DNA of 64,000 nucleotides, taken from assembly GCA_041905405.1 (NCBI GenBank), contig JAYRLC010000023.1, forward strand, positions 15 to 64,014. The letters are read 5' to 3'. The DNA comes from Ramlibacter sp. Its GTDB lineage: Bacteria; Pseudomonadota; Gammaproteobacteria; Burkholderiales; Burkholderiaceae_C. Positions 2,385-60,186 of the stretch are shown here, one piece after another (the stretch's first letter is position 1; every line of letters begins with the position of its first letter). A program made the translations under genes and the position numbers. The notes below the pieces were generated by a model. That model had not been told where the DNA came from, ran no database searches, and was given only the letters and a program-made list of their open reading frames with translations.

Positions 2385-4598
2385 TCAACCGCCTGCCTTA
2401 ACCTTCAACCGCCACGCATGCAGCAGCGGCTCGGTGTAGCCGCTGGGCTGTTCTTTGCCCTTGAACACCAGCTCTGTCGCCGCCTGATACGCCGCACCGT
2501 CGTAGTTGCCGGTCATGGGCTTGTACAGCGCATCGCCCGCGTTCTGCTTGTCCACCACCTTGGCCATGCGCTTGAAGGTTGCATTCACTTGTGCCTTGGT
2601 GACCACGCCGTGGTGCAGCCAGTTGGCCATGTGCTGGCTGCTGATGCGCAGCGTGGCGCGGTCTTCCATCAGGCCCACGTTGTGGATGTCGGGCACCTTG
2701 GAGCAGCCCACGCCCTGGTCGATCCAGCGCACCACGTAGCCCAGGATGCCCTGTGCGTTGTTGTCCAGTTCCTGCTGCTTCTCGGCATCAGTCCACTTCG
2801 CGGCCTTGACCACGGGGATGCTCAGCAGATCGTTCAGAATGCCGTCGCGCGCGCCGTCGGCGTCGATCTTTTCCAGGTCCTTCTGCACGTCGGACACCTT
2901 GACCTGGTGGTAGTGCAGCGCGTGCAGCGTCGCGCCCGTGGGGCTGGGCACCCAGGCAGTGTTGGCGCCGGCCTTGGGGTGGGCGATCTTCTGTTGCAGC
3001 ATGGCGGCCATCAGGTCGGGCATGGCCCACATGCCCTTGCCGATCTGCGCCTTGCCGCGCAGGCCGCAGCTCAGGCCCACGAGCACGTTGTTGCGCTCGT
3101 ATGCCTGGATCCAGGCGCTGGACTTCATGTCGCCCTTGCGCAGCACGGGGCCGGCCTGCATGCAGGTGTGCATTTCGTCGCCCGTGCGGTCCAGGAAGCC
3201 CGTGTTGATGAAGGCCACGCGGCTGGCGGCCGCGGCAATGCAGGCCTTGAGGTTCACGCTGGTGCGGCGCTCTTCGTCCATGATGCCCAGCTTGACGGTG
3301 CTGTCCTTCAGGCCCAGCACTTTCTCGACGCGGGTGAACAGCTCGGCGGCGAACGCCACTTCGGCGGGGCCGTGCATCTTGGGCTTGACGATGTAGACGC
3401 TTCCGGTGCGGCTGTTGCGGATCCCGTTCGCACCATGGCCCTGCAGGTCGTGCAGCGCGATGGTCGTGGTGATCACGGCATCCATGATCCCTTCCGGAAT
3501 TTCCTTCGTGCTGCCATCGGCCGCCGTGTACAGGATGGCCGGGTTGGTCATCAGGTGGCCCACGTTGCGCACGAACATCAGCGAGCGGCCGTGCAGCTTC
3601 ACCTCGCCGCCGTTCGGGCCGGTATAGACGCGGTCGGCGTTCAGGCCGCGCGTGAAGGTCTTGCCGCCCTTGGCGACTTCCTCGGTCAACGTGCCCTTCA
3701 AAATGCCCAGCCAGTTGCCGTACGCCAGCACCTTGTCCTGCGCATCGACCACGGCGACGGAGTCTTCCAGGTCCAGGATGGTGGACAGCGCCGACTCGAT
3801 CACCAGGTCGCTCACGCCGGCCGCGTCGGTCGCGCCGATGGGCGTGTTGCGGTCGATGCGGATGTCCAGGTGCAGGCCGTTGTGCTGCAGCAGCACGCCC
3901 GACGGCGCAGCCGCGTCGCCCTGGTAGCCGGTGAGCTGCTTGCCATCCTTCAGCTCGGTGGTCTGGCCGCCCTTGAGCGTGACGACCAGCTTGCCGCCGG
4001 CCACGGCGTAGCCGGTGCTGTCGATGTGCGAGCCCTTTTTGAGCGGGGCGGTGCGGTCCAGCACGTAGCGTGCGTATTCGATGACCTTGGCGCCGCGCTT
4101 TTCGTTGTAGCCCTTGCCCCCTTCTTTCACCTTGCCACAGCCGTCGGCCTCGGAAATCGCGTCGGTGCCGTACAGCGCGTCGTACAGGCTGCCCCAGCGC
4201 GCGTTGGCGGCGTTCAGCGCATAGCGCGCGTTCAGGATCGGCACCACGAGCTGCGGGCCGGCCTGCGTGGCGAGCTCGGCGTCCACGTTCTTCGTCGTGG
4301 CCTTGACCTTGGCCGGCACGGGCACCAGGTAGCCGATCTTTTCCAGGAACTTGCGGTACTTGCCCATGTTCTTGATCGGGCCGGGGTTGGCCTTGTGCCA
4401 GGCGTCCAGCTCGGTCTGCAGGCGGTCGCGCTCGGCCAGCAGGGCGATGTTCTTGGGCGCCAGGTCGGCCACGATGGCGTCGAAGCCTTTCCAGAACGCG
4501 GCGCTGTCCACGCCGGTGCCAGGCAGGACCTTGTGCTGGATGAACTCGTACAGCTCGGTGGCCACCTGCAGGCGGTGAACGGGGGTGCGTTGCGTCAT
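2385..4598 (-). CDS. glcB: malate synthase G
   Basis: About 737 aa starting [30 protein letters not shown]. Full-length similarity to GlcB as I remember it. Confidence 0.95.
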
Positions 4599-4792
4599 GG
4601 TGTTCTCCAAAGAAGAGGGCAAAGGGGGAGCCTGAACGCCACTGTATTCGATACTTTGAGTGGCATTAAGTCGGGAATATGAGATTTATCCGTGACAAAA
4701 ACAAATGTAATGGTGGGCACTTGCTTGGGGAACCCCCGCATGCCCTGCCGCGCATTGCCGCATATATTTAACCTCTTAAATAACAAGATTCC

Positions 4793-5821
4793 ATGATCTC
4801 GCTTGCTTCGAATGAAAACCCGCTGGGCATGCCCCAGTCCGCCCGCCAAGCCGCGGCCGATGCCTTGCAAACCGCGGGCCAGTACCCCGACGCCACCGGC
4901 GCCGACCTGAAAGCCGCGCTGGCTGAACGCCTGGGCGTGCCGGCTGGCTGGCTGGTGTTGGGCAGTGGCTCCAGTGAAATCCTCACGCTCACGGCGCAGG
5001 CCTGTGTCCAGCCGGGGCAGGGCGTGGTGTGGTCGCAGTACGGCTTCATCGTTTACGGGCAGGCGGCGCAGCTTGCGCGCGGCGCGGCCGTGGTGGTGCC
5101 CGCGCGCGACTTTGGCCACGATCTGGGCGCCATGCGCGCCGCCGTCAATGTGGACACGCGCCTCATTTTTCTGGCCAACCCCAACAACCCCACGGGCAGC
5201 TTCATCGATGCTGCCTGGCTGCAGGGTTTCATTGCCAGCGTGCCGCCGCACGTCACCGTGCTGCTGGATGAGGCGTACACCGAATACCTCACGCCCGCGC
5301 AGCGCTACGACAGCATGGCGTGGGTGCGCGCGCACCCCAACCTGATCGTGGCGCGCACGTTTTCCAAGGCCTACGGCCTGGCGGGGCTGCGGGTGGGCTA
5401 TGGCGTGGCGCAGCCCGCGCTGGCGGCCCGGCTCAATGCCATCCGCCCGCGGTTCAACGTCACCACGCCGGCGCTGGCTGCGGCACGCGCCGCGCTGGCC
5501 GATGGCGACTACCTGGCGCGCACCTATGCGCTGAACACGGCGGGCCGCGAGCAACTCACGCAGGGCCTGTCGGCGATGGGGCTTCAATGCCTGCCCTCGG
5601 CCGGCAACTTCGTGACGGTGCGCTTCCCCGATGCCGGGGCGGCCCATGGCACGCTGCTTGCCGCCGGCATTGCCGTGTCCACGCTGGAGCCCTACGGCAT
5701 GGCCGACTGGCTGCGCATCAGCGTGGGCCTGCCTGAACAGAACGAGGCCGTGCTGCAGGCGCTGGCGCGCAGCGGAGCCGCCGCCATCATTTCATCCACC
5801 ACGACCGGAGCCCTGCCATGA
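4793..5821 (+). CDS. hisC: histidinol-phosphate aminotransferase family (class II PLP aminotransferase)
   Basis: MISLASNENPLGMP N-terminus and a FSKAYGLAGLRVGY lysine block. Confidence 0.8.
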   Translation: MISLASNENPLGMPQSARQAAADALQTAGQYPDATGADLKAALAERLGVPAGWLVLGSGSSEILTLTAQACVQPGQGVVWSQYGFIVYGQAAQLARGAAVVVPARDFGHDLGAMRAAVNVDTRLIFLANPNNPTGSFIDAAWLQGFIASVPPHVTVLLDEAYTEYLTPAQRYDSMAWVRAHPNLIVARTFSKAYGLAGLRVGYGVAQPALAARLNAIRPRFNVTTPALAAARAALADGDYLARTYALNTAGREQLTQGLSAMGLQCLPSAGNFVTVRFPDAGAAHGTLLAAGIAVSTLEPYGMADWLRISVGLPEQNEAVLQALARSGAAAIISSTTTGALP

Positions 5822-55883: not shown

Positions 55884-57395
55884 TTGATCACCGAACTCGA
55901 ATTCAAAAGCCTGGCGCAAGCTGGCTACAACCGCATTCCGCTCATCGCGGAAGCTTTTGCGGACCTGGAAACCCCCCTGTCCCTGTACCTCAAGCTCGCG
56001 CATTCACGTGACGGCGGCAAACACAGCTTCCTGCTCGAATCCGTCGTGGGCGGTGAGCGCTTCGGCCGTTACAGCTTCATCGGCCTGCCCGCGCGCACGC
56101 TGGTGCGCGCCAGCGGCTTTGGCGCCGACGCCGTGACCGAGGTTGTGCGCGATGGCAAGGTCATCGAGACCGCCAGCGGCAACCCGCTGGATTTTGTGGA
56201 CAGCTACCAGAAGCGCTTCAAGGTCGCGTTGCGTCCCGGCCTGCCGCGCTTTTGCGGCGGCCTGGCGGGTTACTTCGGCTACGACACCGTGCGCCACATC
56301 GAGAAAAAGCTCGAGAAGTCCTGCCCGCCCGACACACTGGGTTGCCCCGACATCCTGCTGCTGCAGTGCGAGGAGCTGGCCGTCATCGACAACCTGTCGG
56401 GCAAGCTGTACCTGATCGTCTACGCCGACCCGGGCCAACCCGAGGCGTTCTCCAACGCCAAGAAGCGCCTGCGCGAGTTGCGCGAACAGCTGAAGTACTC
56501 GGTCAGCGCGCCGGTCATCAGGCAGAGCCAGACCTTTCCGGCCGAGCGCGACTTTGCCAAGGCTGATTACATCGCTGCGGTGGAGCGCGCCAAAGAGCTT
56601 ATTGCTGCCGGCGACTTCATGCAGGTCCAGGTGGGCCAGCGCATCAAGAAGCGCTACACCGAAAGCCCGCTGTCGCTGTACCGCGCGCTGCGCTCGCTCA
56701 ACCCGTCGCCGTACATGTACTACTACCACTTCGGCGACTTCCATGTGGTGGGTGCGTCGCCCGAAATCCTGGTGCGCCAGGAGCAGGTCGAGCATGACGG
56801 AAAACCCGCGCAGAAGATCACCATCCGCCCGCTGGCCGGCACGCGCCCGCGCGCCGCGTCGCCCGAGCAGGACAAGGCAGTGGAGCAGGAACTGGTCACC
56901 GACCCCAAGGAGCGTGCCGAGCACGTGATGCTGATCGACCTGGCGCGCAACGACATCGGCCGCATCGCCAAAACCGGCACCGTGAAAGTGACCGAGGCCT
57001 TCGCGGTGGAGCGCTACAGCCACGTGATGCACATCGTGAGCAACGTCGAAGGCATCCTGAATGACGGCATGACCAACATGGACGTGCTGCGCGCCACCTT
57101 CCCGGCCGGCACGCTGACCGGCGCGCCCAAGGTCCATGCGATGGAGCTGATCGACCAGCTGGAGCCCACCAAGCGCGGCCTGTATGGCGGCGCCTGCGGC
57201 TACCTGAGTTACGCGGGCGACATGGACGTGGCCATCGCGATCCGCACGGGTCTCATCAAGGACCAGACGCTGTACGTGCAGGCGGCTGCCGGCGTGGTGG
57301 CCGATTCGGTCCCCGAGCTCGAATGGAAAGAAACCGAAGCCAAGGCGCGCGCGCTGCTGCGGGCGAGCGAGCTGGTCGAGGAGGGAATGGAATGA
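55884..57395 (+). CDS. trpE: anthranilate synthase component I
   Basis: TTG start. ITELEFKSLAQAGYNRIPL, ...LLESV.GGERFGRYSF..., ...GTLTGAPK.... Confidence 0.95.
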   Translation: MITELEFKSLAQAGYNRIPLIAEAFADLETPLSLYLKLAHSRDGGKHSFLLESVVGGERFGRYSFIGLPARTLVRASGFGADAVTEVVRDGKVIETASGNPLDFVDSYQKRFKVALRPGLPRFCGGLAGYFGYDTVRHIEKKLEKSCPPDTLGCPDILLLQCEELAVIDNLSGKLYLIVYADPGQPEAFSNAKKRLRELREQLKYSVSAPVIRQSQTFPAERDFAKADYIAAVERAKELIAAGDFMQVQVGQRIKKRYTESPLSLYRALRSLNPSPYMYYYHFGDFHVVGASPEILVRQEQVEHDGKPAQKITIRPLAGTRPRAASPEQDKAVEQELVTDPKERAEHVMLIDLARNDIGRIAKTGTVKVTEAFAVERYSHVMHIVSNVEGILNDGMTNMDVLRATFPAGTLTGAPKVHAMELIDQLEPTKRGLYGGACGYLSYAGDMDVAIAIRTGLIKDQTLYVQAAAGVVADSVPELEWKETEAKARALLRASELVEEGME

Positions 57396-57847
57396 ACCAC
57401 TCGTCCACAGGGATCGGACACCCGTACGCAGAGGACGCAGAGATTGCGCAGAGGACGCAGAAGGAACAGCCGGAAGAAAATGATCGAACTCACGCAATCA
57501 TCGGCGCGGCTGTGGAAGTTCAGCGCGTTCTGGGTGTAGGGCTTCTGGAGAGCGCGTATTCAGGTGCTTTGGCGGTGGAGCTTGCCCAGCGAGGTTTGCG
57601 GTTCGAGCGGGAAGTGGCGGTCCCGGCGCACTACAAAGGTCAGAACGTCGGGCTGGGTTACCGCGCGGATTTCATCGTTGACGACGCCATCATTGTCGAG
57701 TTGAAGGCCCTGGACGGCGTCACGGACGCTCATCGCGCCCAGCTGCTTTCGTACCTGCGGCTGTCCAATCTGAAGCTCGGCCTGCTCATCAACTTCCACG
57801 CCTTCCCGGTGGTCAAGGGCATCCACAGACTGGTTAACAAACTATGA
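57392..57847 (+). CDS. GxxExxY protein (PD-(D/E)XK nuclease-fold family)
   Basis: [29 protein letters not shown]...[15 protein letters not shown]...LINF. The ATG overlaps the trpE stop (ATGA). Confidence 0.85.
57416..57466. repeat. left arm of a 51-bp inverted repeat
   Basis: GGACACCCGTACGCAGAGGACGCAGAGATTGCGCAGAGGACGCAGAAGGAA. It matches the reverse complement of 57861..57911 at 47 of 51 positions. Confidence 0.9.
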
Positions 57848-57860
57848 ATTCCTTTCTGTA

Positions 57861-57911
57861 TTCCTTCTGCGTCCTCTGCGCAACTTCTGCGCCCTCTGCG
57901 TACGGATGTCC
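57861..57911. repeat. right arm of a 51-bp inverted repeat
   Basis: TTCCTTCTGCGTCCTCTGCGCAACTTCTGCGCCCTCTGCGTACGGATGTCC. Confidence 0.9.
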
Positions 57912-57926
57912 GCTTTCGGAGGCCTC

Positions 57927-58499
57927 ATGAAAATTCTGATGATCGATAACTACGACAGCTTCACCTACAACATCGTCCAGTACTTCGGCGAACTGGGTGC
58001 GCAGGTCGAGGTGTTCCGCAACGACGAGATCACGGTGGAAGGCGTCGCGGGCCGCAACCCGGACCTGCTGGTCGTGTCGCCGGGGCCGTGTTCGCCGGCC
58101 GAGGCGGGCATCTCGGTCCCGGCCATCAAGTACTTTGCCGGCAAGCTGCCCATCCTGGGCGTGTGCCTGGGCCACCAGAGCATCGGCGCGGCATTTGGCG
58201 GAAAAATCGTGCGGGCGCAGCAGCTCATGCACGGCAAGACCAGCGTGATCACCACGACGCAGCAAGGCGTGTTTGCCGGGTTGCCCGCGCAGTTCACGGT
58301 CAACCGCTACCACTCGCTTGCGATTGAGCGCGACTCGTGCCCCGCTGAACTGGAAGTCACTGCGCGAACCGACGATGGCGAGATCATGGGCGTGCGCCAC
58401 AAGAGCCTTCCCATCCAGGGCGTGCAGTTCCACCCCGAATCCATCCTGACCGAGCATGGTCATGCGATGTTGCGCAACTTCATGGATCAGGCCGCATGA
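57927..58499 (+). CDS. trpG: anthranilate synthase component II (glutamine amidotransferase)
   Basis: [20 protein letters not shown], ...GVCLGHQ..., ...VQFHPES. Confidence 0.95.
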
Positions 58500-59539
58500 C
58501 GCCTGTCGACTTGCGCAGCGACACCGTGACCCAGCCAACGGCCGCCATGCGTGCCGCCATGGCTGCGGCCCCGTTGGGCGACGACGTATTCGCCGACGAC
58601 CCCAGCGTCAACGCCCTGCAGGACAAGATCGCCGGCATGCTCGGCTTCGAGGCGGCGCTGTTCGTGCCCACCGGCACGCAGGGCAACCTGTGCGCCATCC
58701 TGTCGCATTGCCAGCGCGGCGACGAATACATCGTGGGCCAGTTCCAGCACTGCTACCGCTGGGAGGGCGGCGGCGCCGCCGTGTTCGGCAGCGTGCAGCC
58801 CCAGCCGCTGAACCACGCGGGCGACGGCAGCCTGCCGCTGGCCGACATCGAGGCCGCGATCAAGCCCGATGACGCCCACTTCGCGCGCACCCGGCTGCTG
58901 GCGCTGGAGAACACGCTGGGCGGCAAGCTGCTGCCTTTCAGCTATGTGCAGCAGGCGACGGCCCTGGCCAGCAGCAAGGGCCTGTCGCGCCACCTGGACG
59001 GCGCGCGCCTGTTCAACGCCGCCGTGGCACAGGCCGCGCAGACGGGCGGCGATGCGCGGGCTGAAGCCCTGCGCATTGCGCAGTGCTTTGACAGCGTGTC
59101 GGTGTGCTTCAGCAAGGGGCTTGGCGCGCCGGTGGGGTCCGCCCTGTGCGGCAGCCGCGAATTCATCGCGCGCGCCCATCGCGTCCGCAAGATGGCGGGC
59201 GGCGGCATGCGTCAGGCCGGGATGCTGGCCGCTGCCGCGTCCCATGCGCTGGACCATCACATCGACCGCCTCGCAGACGACCATGCGCTCGCGCGGCGGC
59301 TGGCCGACGGCCTGGCGGGCCTTGACGGCGTGCAGGTCGAGGCGCCGCACACCAACATCGTGTTCGTGGACCTGACCGGCGCCGCGCGTGAAAAATCCGC
59401 GGGCCTGCTGCCGCACCTGGCCGCGCTGGGCATCCAGGCCACGGGGCTGTACCGCCTGCGGCTCGTGACGCACCTCAACGTGGATGCGGCCGGCGTGGAC
59501 CGCGCCGTCGCGGCCATCCGCGCGTATTGCGGAGCCTGA
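58496..59539 (+). CDS. ltaE: low-specificity L-threonine aldolase
   Basis: [15 protein letters not shown]....GDDVF.DDPS. ATGA overlap with trpG. Confidence 0.9.
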
Positions 59540-59541
59540 CC

Positions 59542-60186
59542 ATGCCGATCGACCAGTTGCTTCTTTTCATAGCGGCCGGGCTGCTGCTGAACCTCACCCC
59601 CGGACCCGACGTGCTGTACATCGTGACCCACGCGCTCCGCCAGGGAGCGCGTGCCGGGTCCGTGGCCGCCCTGGGCATCACGGCGGGCTGCTTCGTGCAT
59701 ATCTTCGCGGCAGCCGTGGGCGTCAGCGCGCTGATGGCGGCGTCAGCCACGGCGTTCACCGTGCTCAAGTGGATGGGCGCGGCCTACCTCGTCTACGTGG
59801 GCTTGCGCATGCTGCTCGCGCGCGCGCCTTCCGGCATGGTGCTGGACGGGGCATCCGCGGCGGCGGCCGTACCCCTGAAGACCATCTTCCTGCGTGGCTT
59901 CTGGACCAATGCGCTGAACCCCAAGGTGGCGCTGTTCTTCCTGGCATTTGTGCCGCAGTTCATCGGCCCGGCGGTCGAGCACAAGGCGCTGGCCTTCCTG
60001 CTGCTGGGGCTACTGTTCAACTTCAACGGCCTGTGGGTCAACATCGGCTGGGCGCTGGCGGCGGCCTGGCTGGCGTCGCGCGTGAGTGCGGTCCAGAAAA
60101 CCATGCACTGGCTGGACCGCATTGCCGGCGCCATGTTCGTGGGCTTCGGCCTCAAGCTCGCCTTCACAGACAATCCTTCGCAATAA
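59542..60186 (+). CDS. LysE/RhtB-family amino-acid exporter
   Basis: MPIDQLLLFIAAGLLLNLTPGPDVLYIV; about 6 TM helices. Confidence 0.85.
   Translation: MPIDQLLLFIAAGLLLNLTPGPDVLYIVTHALRQGARAGSVAALGITAGCFVHIFAAAVGVSALMAASATAFTVLKWMGAAYLVYVGLRMLLARAPSGMVLDGASAAAAVPLKTIFLRGFWTNALNPKVALFFLAFVPQFIGPAVEHKALAFLLLGLLFNFNGLWVNIGWALAAAWLASRVSAVQKTMHWLDRIAGAMFVGFGLKLAFTDNPSQ

Follow-up and report, generated by a model that had tools for sequence, protein, structure and literature searches.

What is a small nuclease gene bounded by long inverted repeats doing at the boundary between trpE and trpG? The question arises from a 64,000-nucleotide stretch of Ramlibacter sp. DNA (GenBank assembly GCA_041905405.1, contig JAYRLC010000023.1, positions 15 to 64,014; this whole stretch is referred to below as the window), in which the genes for the two components of anthranilate synthase are separated by a compact cassette consisting of an open reading frame (ORF) of the GxxExxY nuclease family and two inverted-repeat arms (Table 1). 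A first-pass annotation, made by a model from the letters of the window, had proposed two non-exclusive readings, namely a selfish or mobile cassette and an RNA element. We favor, at a little better than an even chance, the reading that the cassette is the gene-carrying member of a selfish family of palindromic repeats, similar to REPIN/RAYT systems and mobilized by its own Cas4/RecB-like nuclease.

The arms described by the first-pass annotation are real, as is the direct repeat inside each of them. They are 52 nt long, complementary at 48 of 52 positions (92%) and 394 nt apart, and they form the best inverted repeat in the window; the runner-up, with arms required to lie within 3 kb of each other, reaches 38 nt and 74%. 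Each arm is built from four heptamers that read CGCAGAG or, once, CGCAGAA (family consensus CGCRRAG) with start-to-start spacings of 9, 11 and 9 nt, the heptamers of the left arm starting at 57427, 57436, 57447 and 57456. The outer ends of the element are CGGACA...TGTCCG. The 15-mer CGCAGAGGACGCAGA occurs at 57427 and 57447 on the plus strand and at 57866 and 57886 on the minus strand (with one mismatch at 57886) and has no further site in the window; these four matches compare with 0.41 expected, and none of 100 shuffles reached four. Being inside the ORF, the left arm encodes 15 residues of an N-terminal extension of the nuclease.

The protein matches the GxxExxY model TIGR04256 with 138.3 bits (cut-off 35, model positions 3-116 of 116) and PDDEXK_3 (PF13366) with 134.3 bits (cut-off 22, positions 2-116 of 117), in agreement with the earlier assignment of a GxxExxY nuclease gene that starts on the trpE stop. 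It displays both the GxxExxY motif (G50-L-L-E53-S-A-Y56) and the PD-(D/E)XK signature (D93, followed by E103-L-K105). The putative catalytic codons lie at 57548-57550 (E53), 57668-57670 (D93), 57698-57700 (E103) and 57704-57706 (K105), and the corresponding columns are invariant or nearly so in both of our homologue alignments. The nuclease is under purifying selection, with a median ratio of nonsynonymous to synonymous substitution rates (dN/dS) of 0.12 in its core. An AlphaFold2 model from a two-clade alignment reached a predicted local distance difference test score (pLDDT) of 95.5; a shallow alignment of close relatives alone gave a pLDDT of 49, which is not usable. In a Foldseek search of the PDB the nearest structure was Cas4 SSO0001 (4ic1; template-modeling score 0.53-0.63, E about 3e-3), followed by lambda exonuclease and RecB-type domains. 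As these are only distant PD-(D/E)XK relatives and none has E < 1e-3, the type of substrate cannot be read from the structure. A Cas4 hidden Markov model (HMM) matched weakly over the catalytic core (E = 4.6e-4), and a sequence-profile search of the PDB with the nuclease gave no match. The 151-residue protein contains no cysteine, hence no iron-sulfur (Fe-S) cluster, and is thus not a Cas4. We predict from its sequence a Cas4/RecB-like PD-(D/E)XK enzyme with a core of about 120 residues, which is probably active. Searches of Pfam and NCBIfam returned PDDEXK_3 and GxxExxY as the only matches and no DDE, serine, tyrosine or HUH transposase, and in the ORF list of the window the arms enclose no second ORF able to encode one. 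The earlier statement that there is no transposase therefore stands for the classical types.

Homologues were drawn from one-genome-per-species contigs (L004-L026 and L030; L-numbers are labels of comparison loci) and from metagenomes (L052-L077). About 50 Comamonadaceae loci have the cassette between trpE and trpG, in hosts that include Ramlibacter, Xenophilus, Polaromonas, Brachymonas, Ottowia and unnamed metagenome-assembled genomes (MAGs). Where the flanks of a homologue with 60% identity or more could be read, trpE always lies directly 5' and trpG lies 3' in all except L004, L066 (contig end) and L076 (no trpG match). In L004 (Ottowia beijingensis) an integrase-like ORF (3644-4636) is located 3' of the cassette where trpG was expected, which suggests that an island inserted beside the cassette. 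Plasmid or phage carriage is not the norm, as there were only six megaplasmid matches, none in cultured phage genomes and, in PHROGs, one borderline family of unknown function.

In 40 distinct trp-locus cassettes the start codon overlaps the trpE stop as ATGA (35) or GTGA (4). The nuclease ORF is in frame with this start codon in 36 of them, and in most a purine motif resembling a Shine-Dalgarno (SD) sequence precedes the trpG ATG, downstream of the right arm. A search of the cassette for promoter-like and terminator-like sites gave no match. The conserved overlap together with this negative result suggests that the nuclease is expressed through operon transcription and through translational coupling to trpE, which fits the earlier proposal that the cassette parasitizes both processes. 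In the window the last codons of trpE, GGA ATG GAA TGA, supply the ATG and an SD-like GGAGG (57380-57384) for the nuclease ORF. This ATG had been called the only in-frame start; it is the only one downstream of trpE, but the nuclease frame is also open upstream into trpE, where an in-frame ATG is found at 57323. As a separate observation, a 106-residue chorismate mutase (CM_2) gene fills the trpE-trpG junction of L047 and L048 (2677-2997) and probably also that of L025 (2640-2982), so that in relatives this junction accepts different inserted genes.

Further copies of the arms exist elsewhere. Eleven loci (L032-L042) matched the arm-encoded peptide alone and are ORF-less elements of 120-150 bp, referred to here as mini copies. 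They have the same termini as the cassette, CGGACAYCCGTA ... TACGGRKGTCCG, four heptamers per arm, and a loop of 30-60 nt that keeps subterminal cassette sequence. Three are in Ramlibacter sp. 2FC, which also has a frameshifted cassette at trpE-trpG, two in R. humi, one in an Ottowia MAG and five (two of them identical) in a betaproteobacterial MAG. The mini copies are located in short intergenic spacers, in most cases with a stop codon 3-13 nt away, and some of these spacers separate convergent genes. An exact-pattern scan of IMG/VR detected related subfamilies that have three-heptamer arms and end in TTCAA/TTGAA or TCACC/GGTGA. These can be dense, with six mini copies in 11 kb (L187) and four in 6 kb (L207). 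At L159 (664-12010) there are 15 solo arrays of the CTCTGCG type in 14 kb, all on one strand and some in tandem. The solo arrays of L159 are interleaved with a second hairpin repeat, GTCATTCCGGCGNAGGCCGGAATCCA.

The two arms of a cassette evolve together. Arm sequences vary among genomes (CGCAGAGGAC, CGCGAAGGAC, CGCAAAGGAC, CGCAAAAGTC), yet in each the left arm matches its own right arm. Across 22 aligned cassettes the arms pair in 90.2% of cells, as compared with 38-50% when partners are slid by one to three columns; compensation is evident from changes on both sides in 26 of the 52 arm pairs, and none of 500 shuffles reached any of five covariation measures. Every heptamer keeps its CGC..A core unchanged, whether in the left arm, which is translated, or in the right arm, which is non-coding, and this indicates that the constraint operates at the level of nucleic acid. 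The first-pass annotation had called the N-terminal extension non-conserved, which is incorrect: P11, A13, A16, Q23 and K24 are invariant across 22 homologues, the peptide being conserved because the arm that encodes it is.

A constraint of this kind could act on RNA. A stem of about 52 bp would loop out the ORF and bring the trpE stop beside the trpG ribosome-binding site, keeping the two coupled, and/or would form an RNase III site at which the transcript is cut in two, and selection on the stem would then keep the arms complementary. The intervening sequences of 23S rRNA offer a precedent for long stems that surround an ORF and are cleaved by RNase III. In the predicted fold of 57380-57940 the arms pair in both the minimum-free-energy and the centroid structure (z = -5.4; none of 100 shuffles as stable). 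The strong covariation, the probable co-transcription with the operon and an SD-like motif that stands immediately beyond the stem, ahead of the downstream gene, would also fit. However, constraint on a plus-strand RNA should favor G:U over A:C, and the non-Watson-Crick cells of the arms contain 49 G:U and 47 A:C (37 and 35 in the core, p = 0.9); this parity, although a weak test, modestly favors a strand-symmetric constraint at the DNA level. The left arm is moreover translated in 36 of the 40 cassettes, so that ribosomes would melt the stem, close relatives manage without the cassette, and a scan of 57000-58300 against Rfam with E up to 10 gave at most a chance match of 16 bits. Arms of this type also occur at loci that have nothing to do with trp, and in ORF-less form between convergent genes; the architecture is therefore not a trp-specific regulatory device, and an RNA role is not the general reason for it. 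We regard an RNA function as a quite improbable explanation of the cassette, although a stem role is compatible with the data and may exist alongside the selfish repeat family that we favor.

Close relatives also provide empty junctions. In L043, which has the identical gene order and a TrpG that is 93% identical, the junction reads TGA-ACACC-ATG, and L049 and L050 have the same 5-nt spacer. L211 (Ramlibacter sp.), L212 and three Macromonas loci (L044-L046) are likewise empty, with trpE and trpG overlapping by ATGA. The two sequence types of the empty junction are GGAATGAAAGTCCTG and GGAGTGAACACCATGAAA. The ATG of ATGA is the trpG start in overlapping empty sites and the nuclease start in filled ATGA sites. 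The cassette is thus polymorphic for presence and absence among close relatives.

Where the cassette is present, its alleles turn over independently of the operon. The identity of the nuclease is uncorrelated with that of TrpE (Spearman 0.07), as compared with 0.59 between TrpE and TrpG, and L008 and L010 differ to 76% identity in the nuclease with TrpE proteins that are 99.8% identical. In four Xenophilus-like genomes with flanks of about 95% identity, identity drops to 70-80% from the trpE stop to approximately the third codon of trpG. The synonymous divergence (dS) of these cassettes is 0.81-0.91 versus 0.17-0.25 in trpE and trpG, and dN/dS is low. A cassette dS of about four times the flank value with low dN/dS indicates replacement by old, divergent alleles; local hypermutation as the source of the divergence is ruled out by the dN/dS of 0.12 at this fourfold dS. 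The borders of the replaced segment are sharp. We saw no co-conversion of the flanks: on the trpE side identity stays at background as far as the stop codon, and on the trpG side it is back at background by about codon 4. Further arm copies, empty junctions and allele turnover support the earlier suggestion of a mobile or selfish cassette; the first two are the checks that the first-pass annotation had named for it, and both turned out in its favor.

The same patterns could be produced by a free-standing gene of the homing-endonuclease type that is specific for trpE-trpG. Cleavage of the unoccupied junction by such an enzyme, in cells without the cassette, and subsequent repair templated on an occupied one would introduce the cassette. 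The arms would then have a secondary role, such as insulating the expression of host genes, and the mini copies would be what is left of such cassettes after decay at other sites. Homing endonucleases with a PD-(D/E)XK fold exist, one example being I-Ssp6803I. The confinement of the trp clade to the trpE-trpG junction, the filled/empty polymorphism among close relatives and the divergent alleles in near-identical backgrounds are all as homing would have them. Copies that lack catalytic residues and arms (see below) fit a cycle of invasion, decay and loss, and a second clade of the family has its own fixed site, between AsnRS-like (asparaginyl-tRNA synthetase) and arginase-like genes, in three Acidobacteriota. 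On the other hand, homing should leave a gradient of co-conversion, and background identity is regained within a few bases of the cassette. It also leaves unexplained the compensatory changes that keep the arms complementary, the near-identical termini that mini copies share with the cassette at numerous unconnected loci across several genera, and the dense arrays of mini copies. We consider homing unlikely.

Several copies have decayed. At the trp locus L021 (E103S, K105L) and L025 (D93G) have lost their arms as well as catalytic residues; L027 is without the ExK segment, and L018 is frameshifted. Such decay is expected of a selfish gene. We considered whether arm loss always accompanies catalytic loss. 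In the trp clade both arm-less copies are mutant as compared with about 2 of 40 armed copies; the rule fails in the family as a whole, where our sample contains 27 intact genes without a strong inverted repeat, and we rejected it.

The four decayed copies also bring up the possibility that the cassette is an inert relic, an old passenger insertion with an inactive protein and inactive arms. A relative of the window, L210 (contig JAYRMA010000009.1, GCA_041904965.1), carries the cassette and is 97.7% identical over 3.6 kb, and the two differ at two arm positions (57435 and 57888), one in each arm, of which one makes and the other removes a mismatch; uncompensated differences of this sort would suit a relic. 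The whole cassette shows fewer differences from L210 (5 in about 540 nt) than the flanks do. A relic is difficult to reconcile with the median dN/dS of 0.12, with catalytic residues that are intact in the window copy and in most others, with complementarity held across saturated synonymous divergence, and with a non-coding right arm that is conserved as much as the coding left arm. These observations make the relic explanation highly improbable.

The link between gene and repeat extends beyond the trp clade. Of 61 distinct gene-centered intervals, 38 have an inverted repeat scoring 30 bits or more on the flanks of the gene, as compared with 0 of 84 controls shifted by 1 kb. Homologues of 48-58% identity have flanking inverted repeats made of tandem CACGGAG, CGCCGAG, CACAGAG or CGCAGAG units, and heptamer-array arms (CACGGAG, CGCCGAG, CACAGAG) surround distant GxxExxY genes in Acidobacteriota and Bacteroidota. 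The genes sit at diverse places: besides the three Acidobacteriota copies that share one site, a Ramlibacter copy from another clade lies between mreD-like and PBP2-like ORFs, and copies in Bacteroides finegoldii (radA / FAD-dependent protein) and Bernardetia (ade / mannose-1-phosphate guanylyltransferase) have 28-30 nt arms of CACAGAG arrays in spacers of about 60 nt. Many members of the family, which comprises 18,899 clusters at 50% identity (E <= 1e-3), have termini that look like translated arms, for example TEGTEDTE or QNRQSRQ. It may be, at a chance that falls just short of even, that GxxExxY nucleases are the cognate enzymes of a large, unrecognized class of REP-like heptamer-array repeats in Pseudomonadota, Acidobacteriota and Bacteroidota, with the gene copies surviving in the junctions of housekeeping operons by exploiting the coupling of stop and start codons there. 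On that view they would form a PD-(D/E)XK counterpart to REPINs and RAYTs. Apart from this, some family members of 250-295 residues (P0363-P0372) have two tandem GxxExxY domains, and in P0363 and P0364 the second domain apparently lacks the acidic residue of GxxExxY and that of the ExK motif.

We propose the following mechanism for the selfish palindromic repeat family. The promoterless cassette would be transcribed with the trp operon and its translation coupled to that of trpE through the ATGA overlap, with the SD-like motif for trpG at its right end keeping the operon functional. The nuclease would recognize the arms by their heptamer arrays, whether these are in duplex form or folded into a snap-back hairpin, and cut at or near the ends of the element, leading to copying or replacement of the DNA that the arms bound. 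It could act in this manner on its own cassette at trpE-trpG and, in trans, on the ORF-less copies of 120-150 bp beside gene ends, a relation analogous to that of RAYT transposases and REPINs with an enzyme from a different superfamily. The gene itself would persist at a single operon junction and be expressed there through the translational coupling that it has hijacked.

A number of points weigh against this proposal. A single-domain PD-(D/E)XK nuclease cannot by itself perform strand transfer, and the copying step is unexplained. No full-length copy of the clade was seen outside trpE-trpG, a restriction that agrees with homing or vertical descent as well as with a RAYT-like arrangement, and ordinary homologous recombination in the conserved flanks could also replace alleles. 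There was no consistent target-site duplication around 10 mini copies. A GCCT(G) duplication at the L034 mini copy was judged to be chance, as it is not repeated at other mini copies. Both junctions of the trp copy read ATGA(A), which could mark a duplication but is equally required by a trpG start followed by a Lys or Thr codon. The association with repeats is incomplete, given the 27 intact family members without a strong inverted repeat. The window contains one element and no mini copy; an HMM search of the fetched mini-rich IMG/VR stretches found no GxxExxY gene; and these contigs are labeled viral and may be host DNA. Among the contigs compared, a gene and mini copies with matching arms were found in one genome only, that of Ramlibacter sp. 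2FC, in which the gene is frameshifted. Lastly, the searchable literature, queried with the family names and with PD-(D/E)XK together with REP, REPIN, RAYT or MITE (miniature inverted-repeat transposable element), gave no biochemical or genetic evidence, no description of the element and no function for the family, with subscription literature and database comments outside the scope of that search.

If these nucleases do act on the repeats that flank them, a very large family that is annotated as "unknown" would gain a function and a class of high-copy bacterial repeats an origin. There would then be a second partnership of a nuclease with palindromic repeats that is mechanistically independent of the RAYTs, and the question would arise of how a simple nuclease without strand-transfer chemistry spreads DNA. 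For annotation, the odd low-complexity N- and C-termini seen in many members of the family (AEDAE, TEGTEDTE, QRTQK) are repeat arms in translation. The cassette also illustrates how a selfish gene could reside within an essential operon without breaking it, by taking a coupled start codon, with an SD-like motif for the gene that follows placed at its right end.

The features of the locus are collected in Table 1. GC content at third codon positions is 0.72 in the nuclease ORF as compared with 0.87 in trpE, 0.84 in trpG and 0.84-0.90 in neighboring genes, a difference that we count with the evidence for allele turnover.

Table 1. Coordinates in the window of the cassette and of the trp genes on either side of it
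Feature	Position	Strand	Evidence
trpE, anthranilate synthase component I, upstream host gene	55884..57395	+	TIGR00564, 522 bits
ATGA overlap, nuclease-ORF start codon on the trpE stop (TGA 57393-57395)	57392..57395	+	sequence read
Complete nuclease ORF, 151 aa, stop TGA 57845-57847	57392..57847	+	ORF and HMM
Variable leader from ATGA overlap to left arm; translated; part of the segment swapped between cassette alleles	57396..57414	+	alignments
Left inverted-repeat arm, inside the nuclease ORF; starts with terminal motif CGGACACCCGTA	57415..57466	+	repeat search, covariation
PD-(D/E)XK nuclease core (GxxExxY / PDDEXK_3)	57482..57829	+	Pfam match, residues 31-146
Right inverted-repeat arm, non-coding; four reverse heptamers (57865-57900); ends in TACGGATGTCCG	57861..57912	+	repeat search
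Trailer with new SD-like GGAGG (57918-57922) for trpG; swapped along with the cassette allele	57913..57926	+	sequence read, alignment
trpG, anthranilate synthase component II, downstream host gene	57927..58499	+	TIGR00566, 250 bits

The region 3' of trpG in the window (58496-60186) contains a threonine-aldolase-like ORF (58496-59539) and a LysE-exporter-like ORF, both named from their L043 orthologues; L043 has the same two genes between trpG and trpD/trpC, and in Macromonas and L049 trpG directly abuts trpD. Two repeats of other kinds were noted in this region of the comparison loci. A palindromic insert of about 70-95 nt (AGTCCGTTCGGSCTGAGCC ... GGCTCAGSCCGAACGGA), which belongs to a different repeat family, lies apparently in frame within the threonine-aldolase-like gene of L008 (~4720-4800) and also occurs in L007 and L011; it is absent from L010 and from the corresponding ORF of the window. 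A palindromic repeat of about 130 nt fills the spacer 3' of trpG in L010 (~4100-4230) and L011 and is absent from L007 and L008, a presence/absence polymorphism in two of four near-identical genomes.

How does the cassette compare with known systems? Cas4 provides the nearest solved fold and the weak HMM similarity. It differs in size (about 200 residues versus about 120 for the GxxExxY nuclease) and in having a four-cysteine Fe-S cluster, and the window has no CRISPR or cas context. Free-standing homing endonuclease genes, including that of I-Ssp6803I, share with the cassette a small nuclease gene between conserved genes, a patchy distribution, empty sites, degeneration and allele turnover. 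The long inverted repeats, the dispersed ORF-less copies and the absence of co-conversion tracts set the cassette apart from them.

MITEs and their parent insertion sequences (such as Correia, ERIC and Nezha-type elements) resemble the cassette in their terminal inverted repeats (here 52 nt, 92%), in internal-deletion derivatives that keep subterminal sequence, and in their insertion into transcribed intergenic DNA with the potential to form RNA stems. Unlike them, the cassette has no classical transposase and no detected target-site duplication, its arms are internally repetitive, and its full-length copy is found at one site only.

Intervening sequences of 23S rRNA that carry an ORF, encoding the S23p or four-helix-bundle protein, have a long terminal stem within a highly transcribed unit and occur in short ORF-less and long ORF-bearing versions. 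They resemble the cassette in their small stem-enclosed ORF and their two versions, and differ in their rRNA host, as opposed to the mRNA operon junction seen here, and in the family of their protein. A gene for a four helix bundle protein of the 23S intervening-sequence family is also annotated in Flavobacterium columnare between the guanylate kinase and nicotinate-nucleotide adenylyltransferase genes (PMC5524665), which is likewise a small ORF amid housekeeping genes.

The closest parallel is with REPIN-RAYT systems, whose features we took from three reports (PMC3337134, PMC3116915, 10.1101/2022.05.22.493013). The enzymes are different, RAYT being an HUH/Y1 transposase (IS200/IS605-like) and the cassette protein a PD-(D/E)XK nuclease. 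So are the repeats, as a REP is a short GC-rich hairpin with a GTAG or CGTC tag, and the cassette repeat consists of three or four heptamers at 8-11 nt spacing. The cassette gene is translationally coupled within an operon junction, and its alleles turn over horizontally, whereas RAYT is described as tracking its host vertically. What the two systems have in common is a single-locus nuclease gene that is flanked by inverted copies of a repeat and holds a conserved chromosomal position, together with ORF-less palindromic doublets, here in relatives, that are dispersed near gene ends and whose halves stay complementary.

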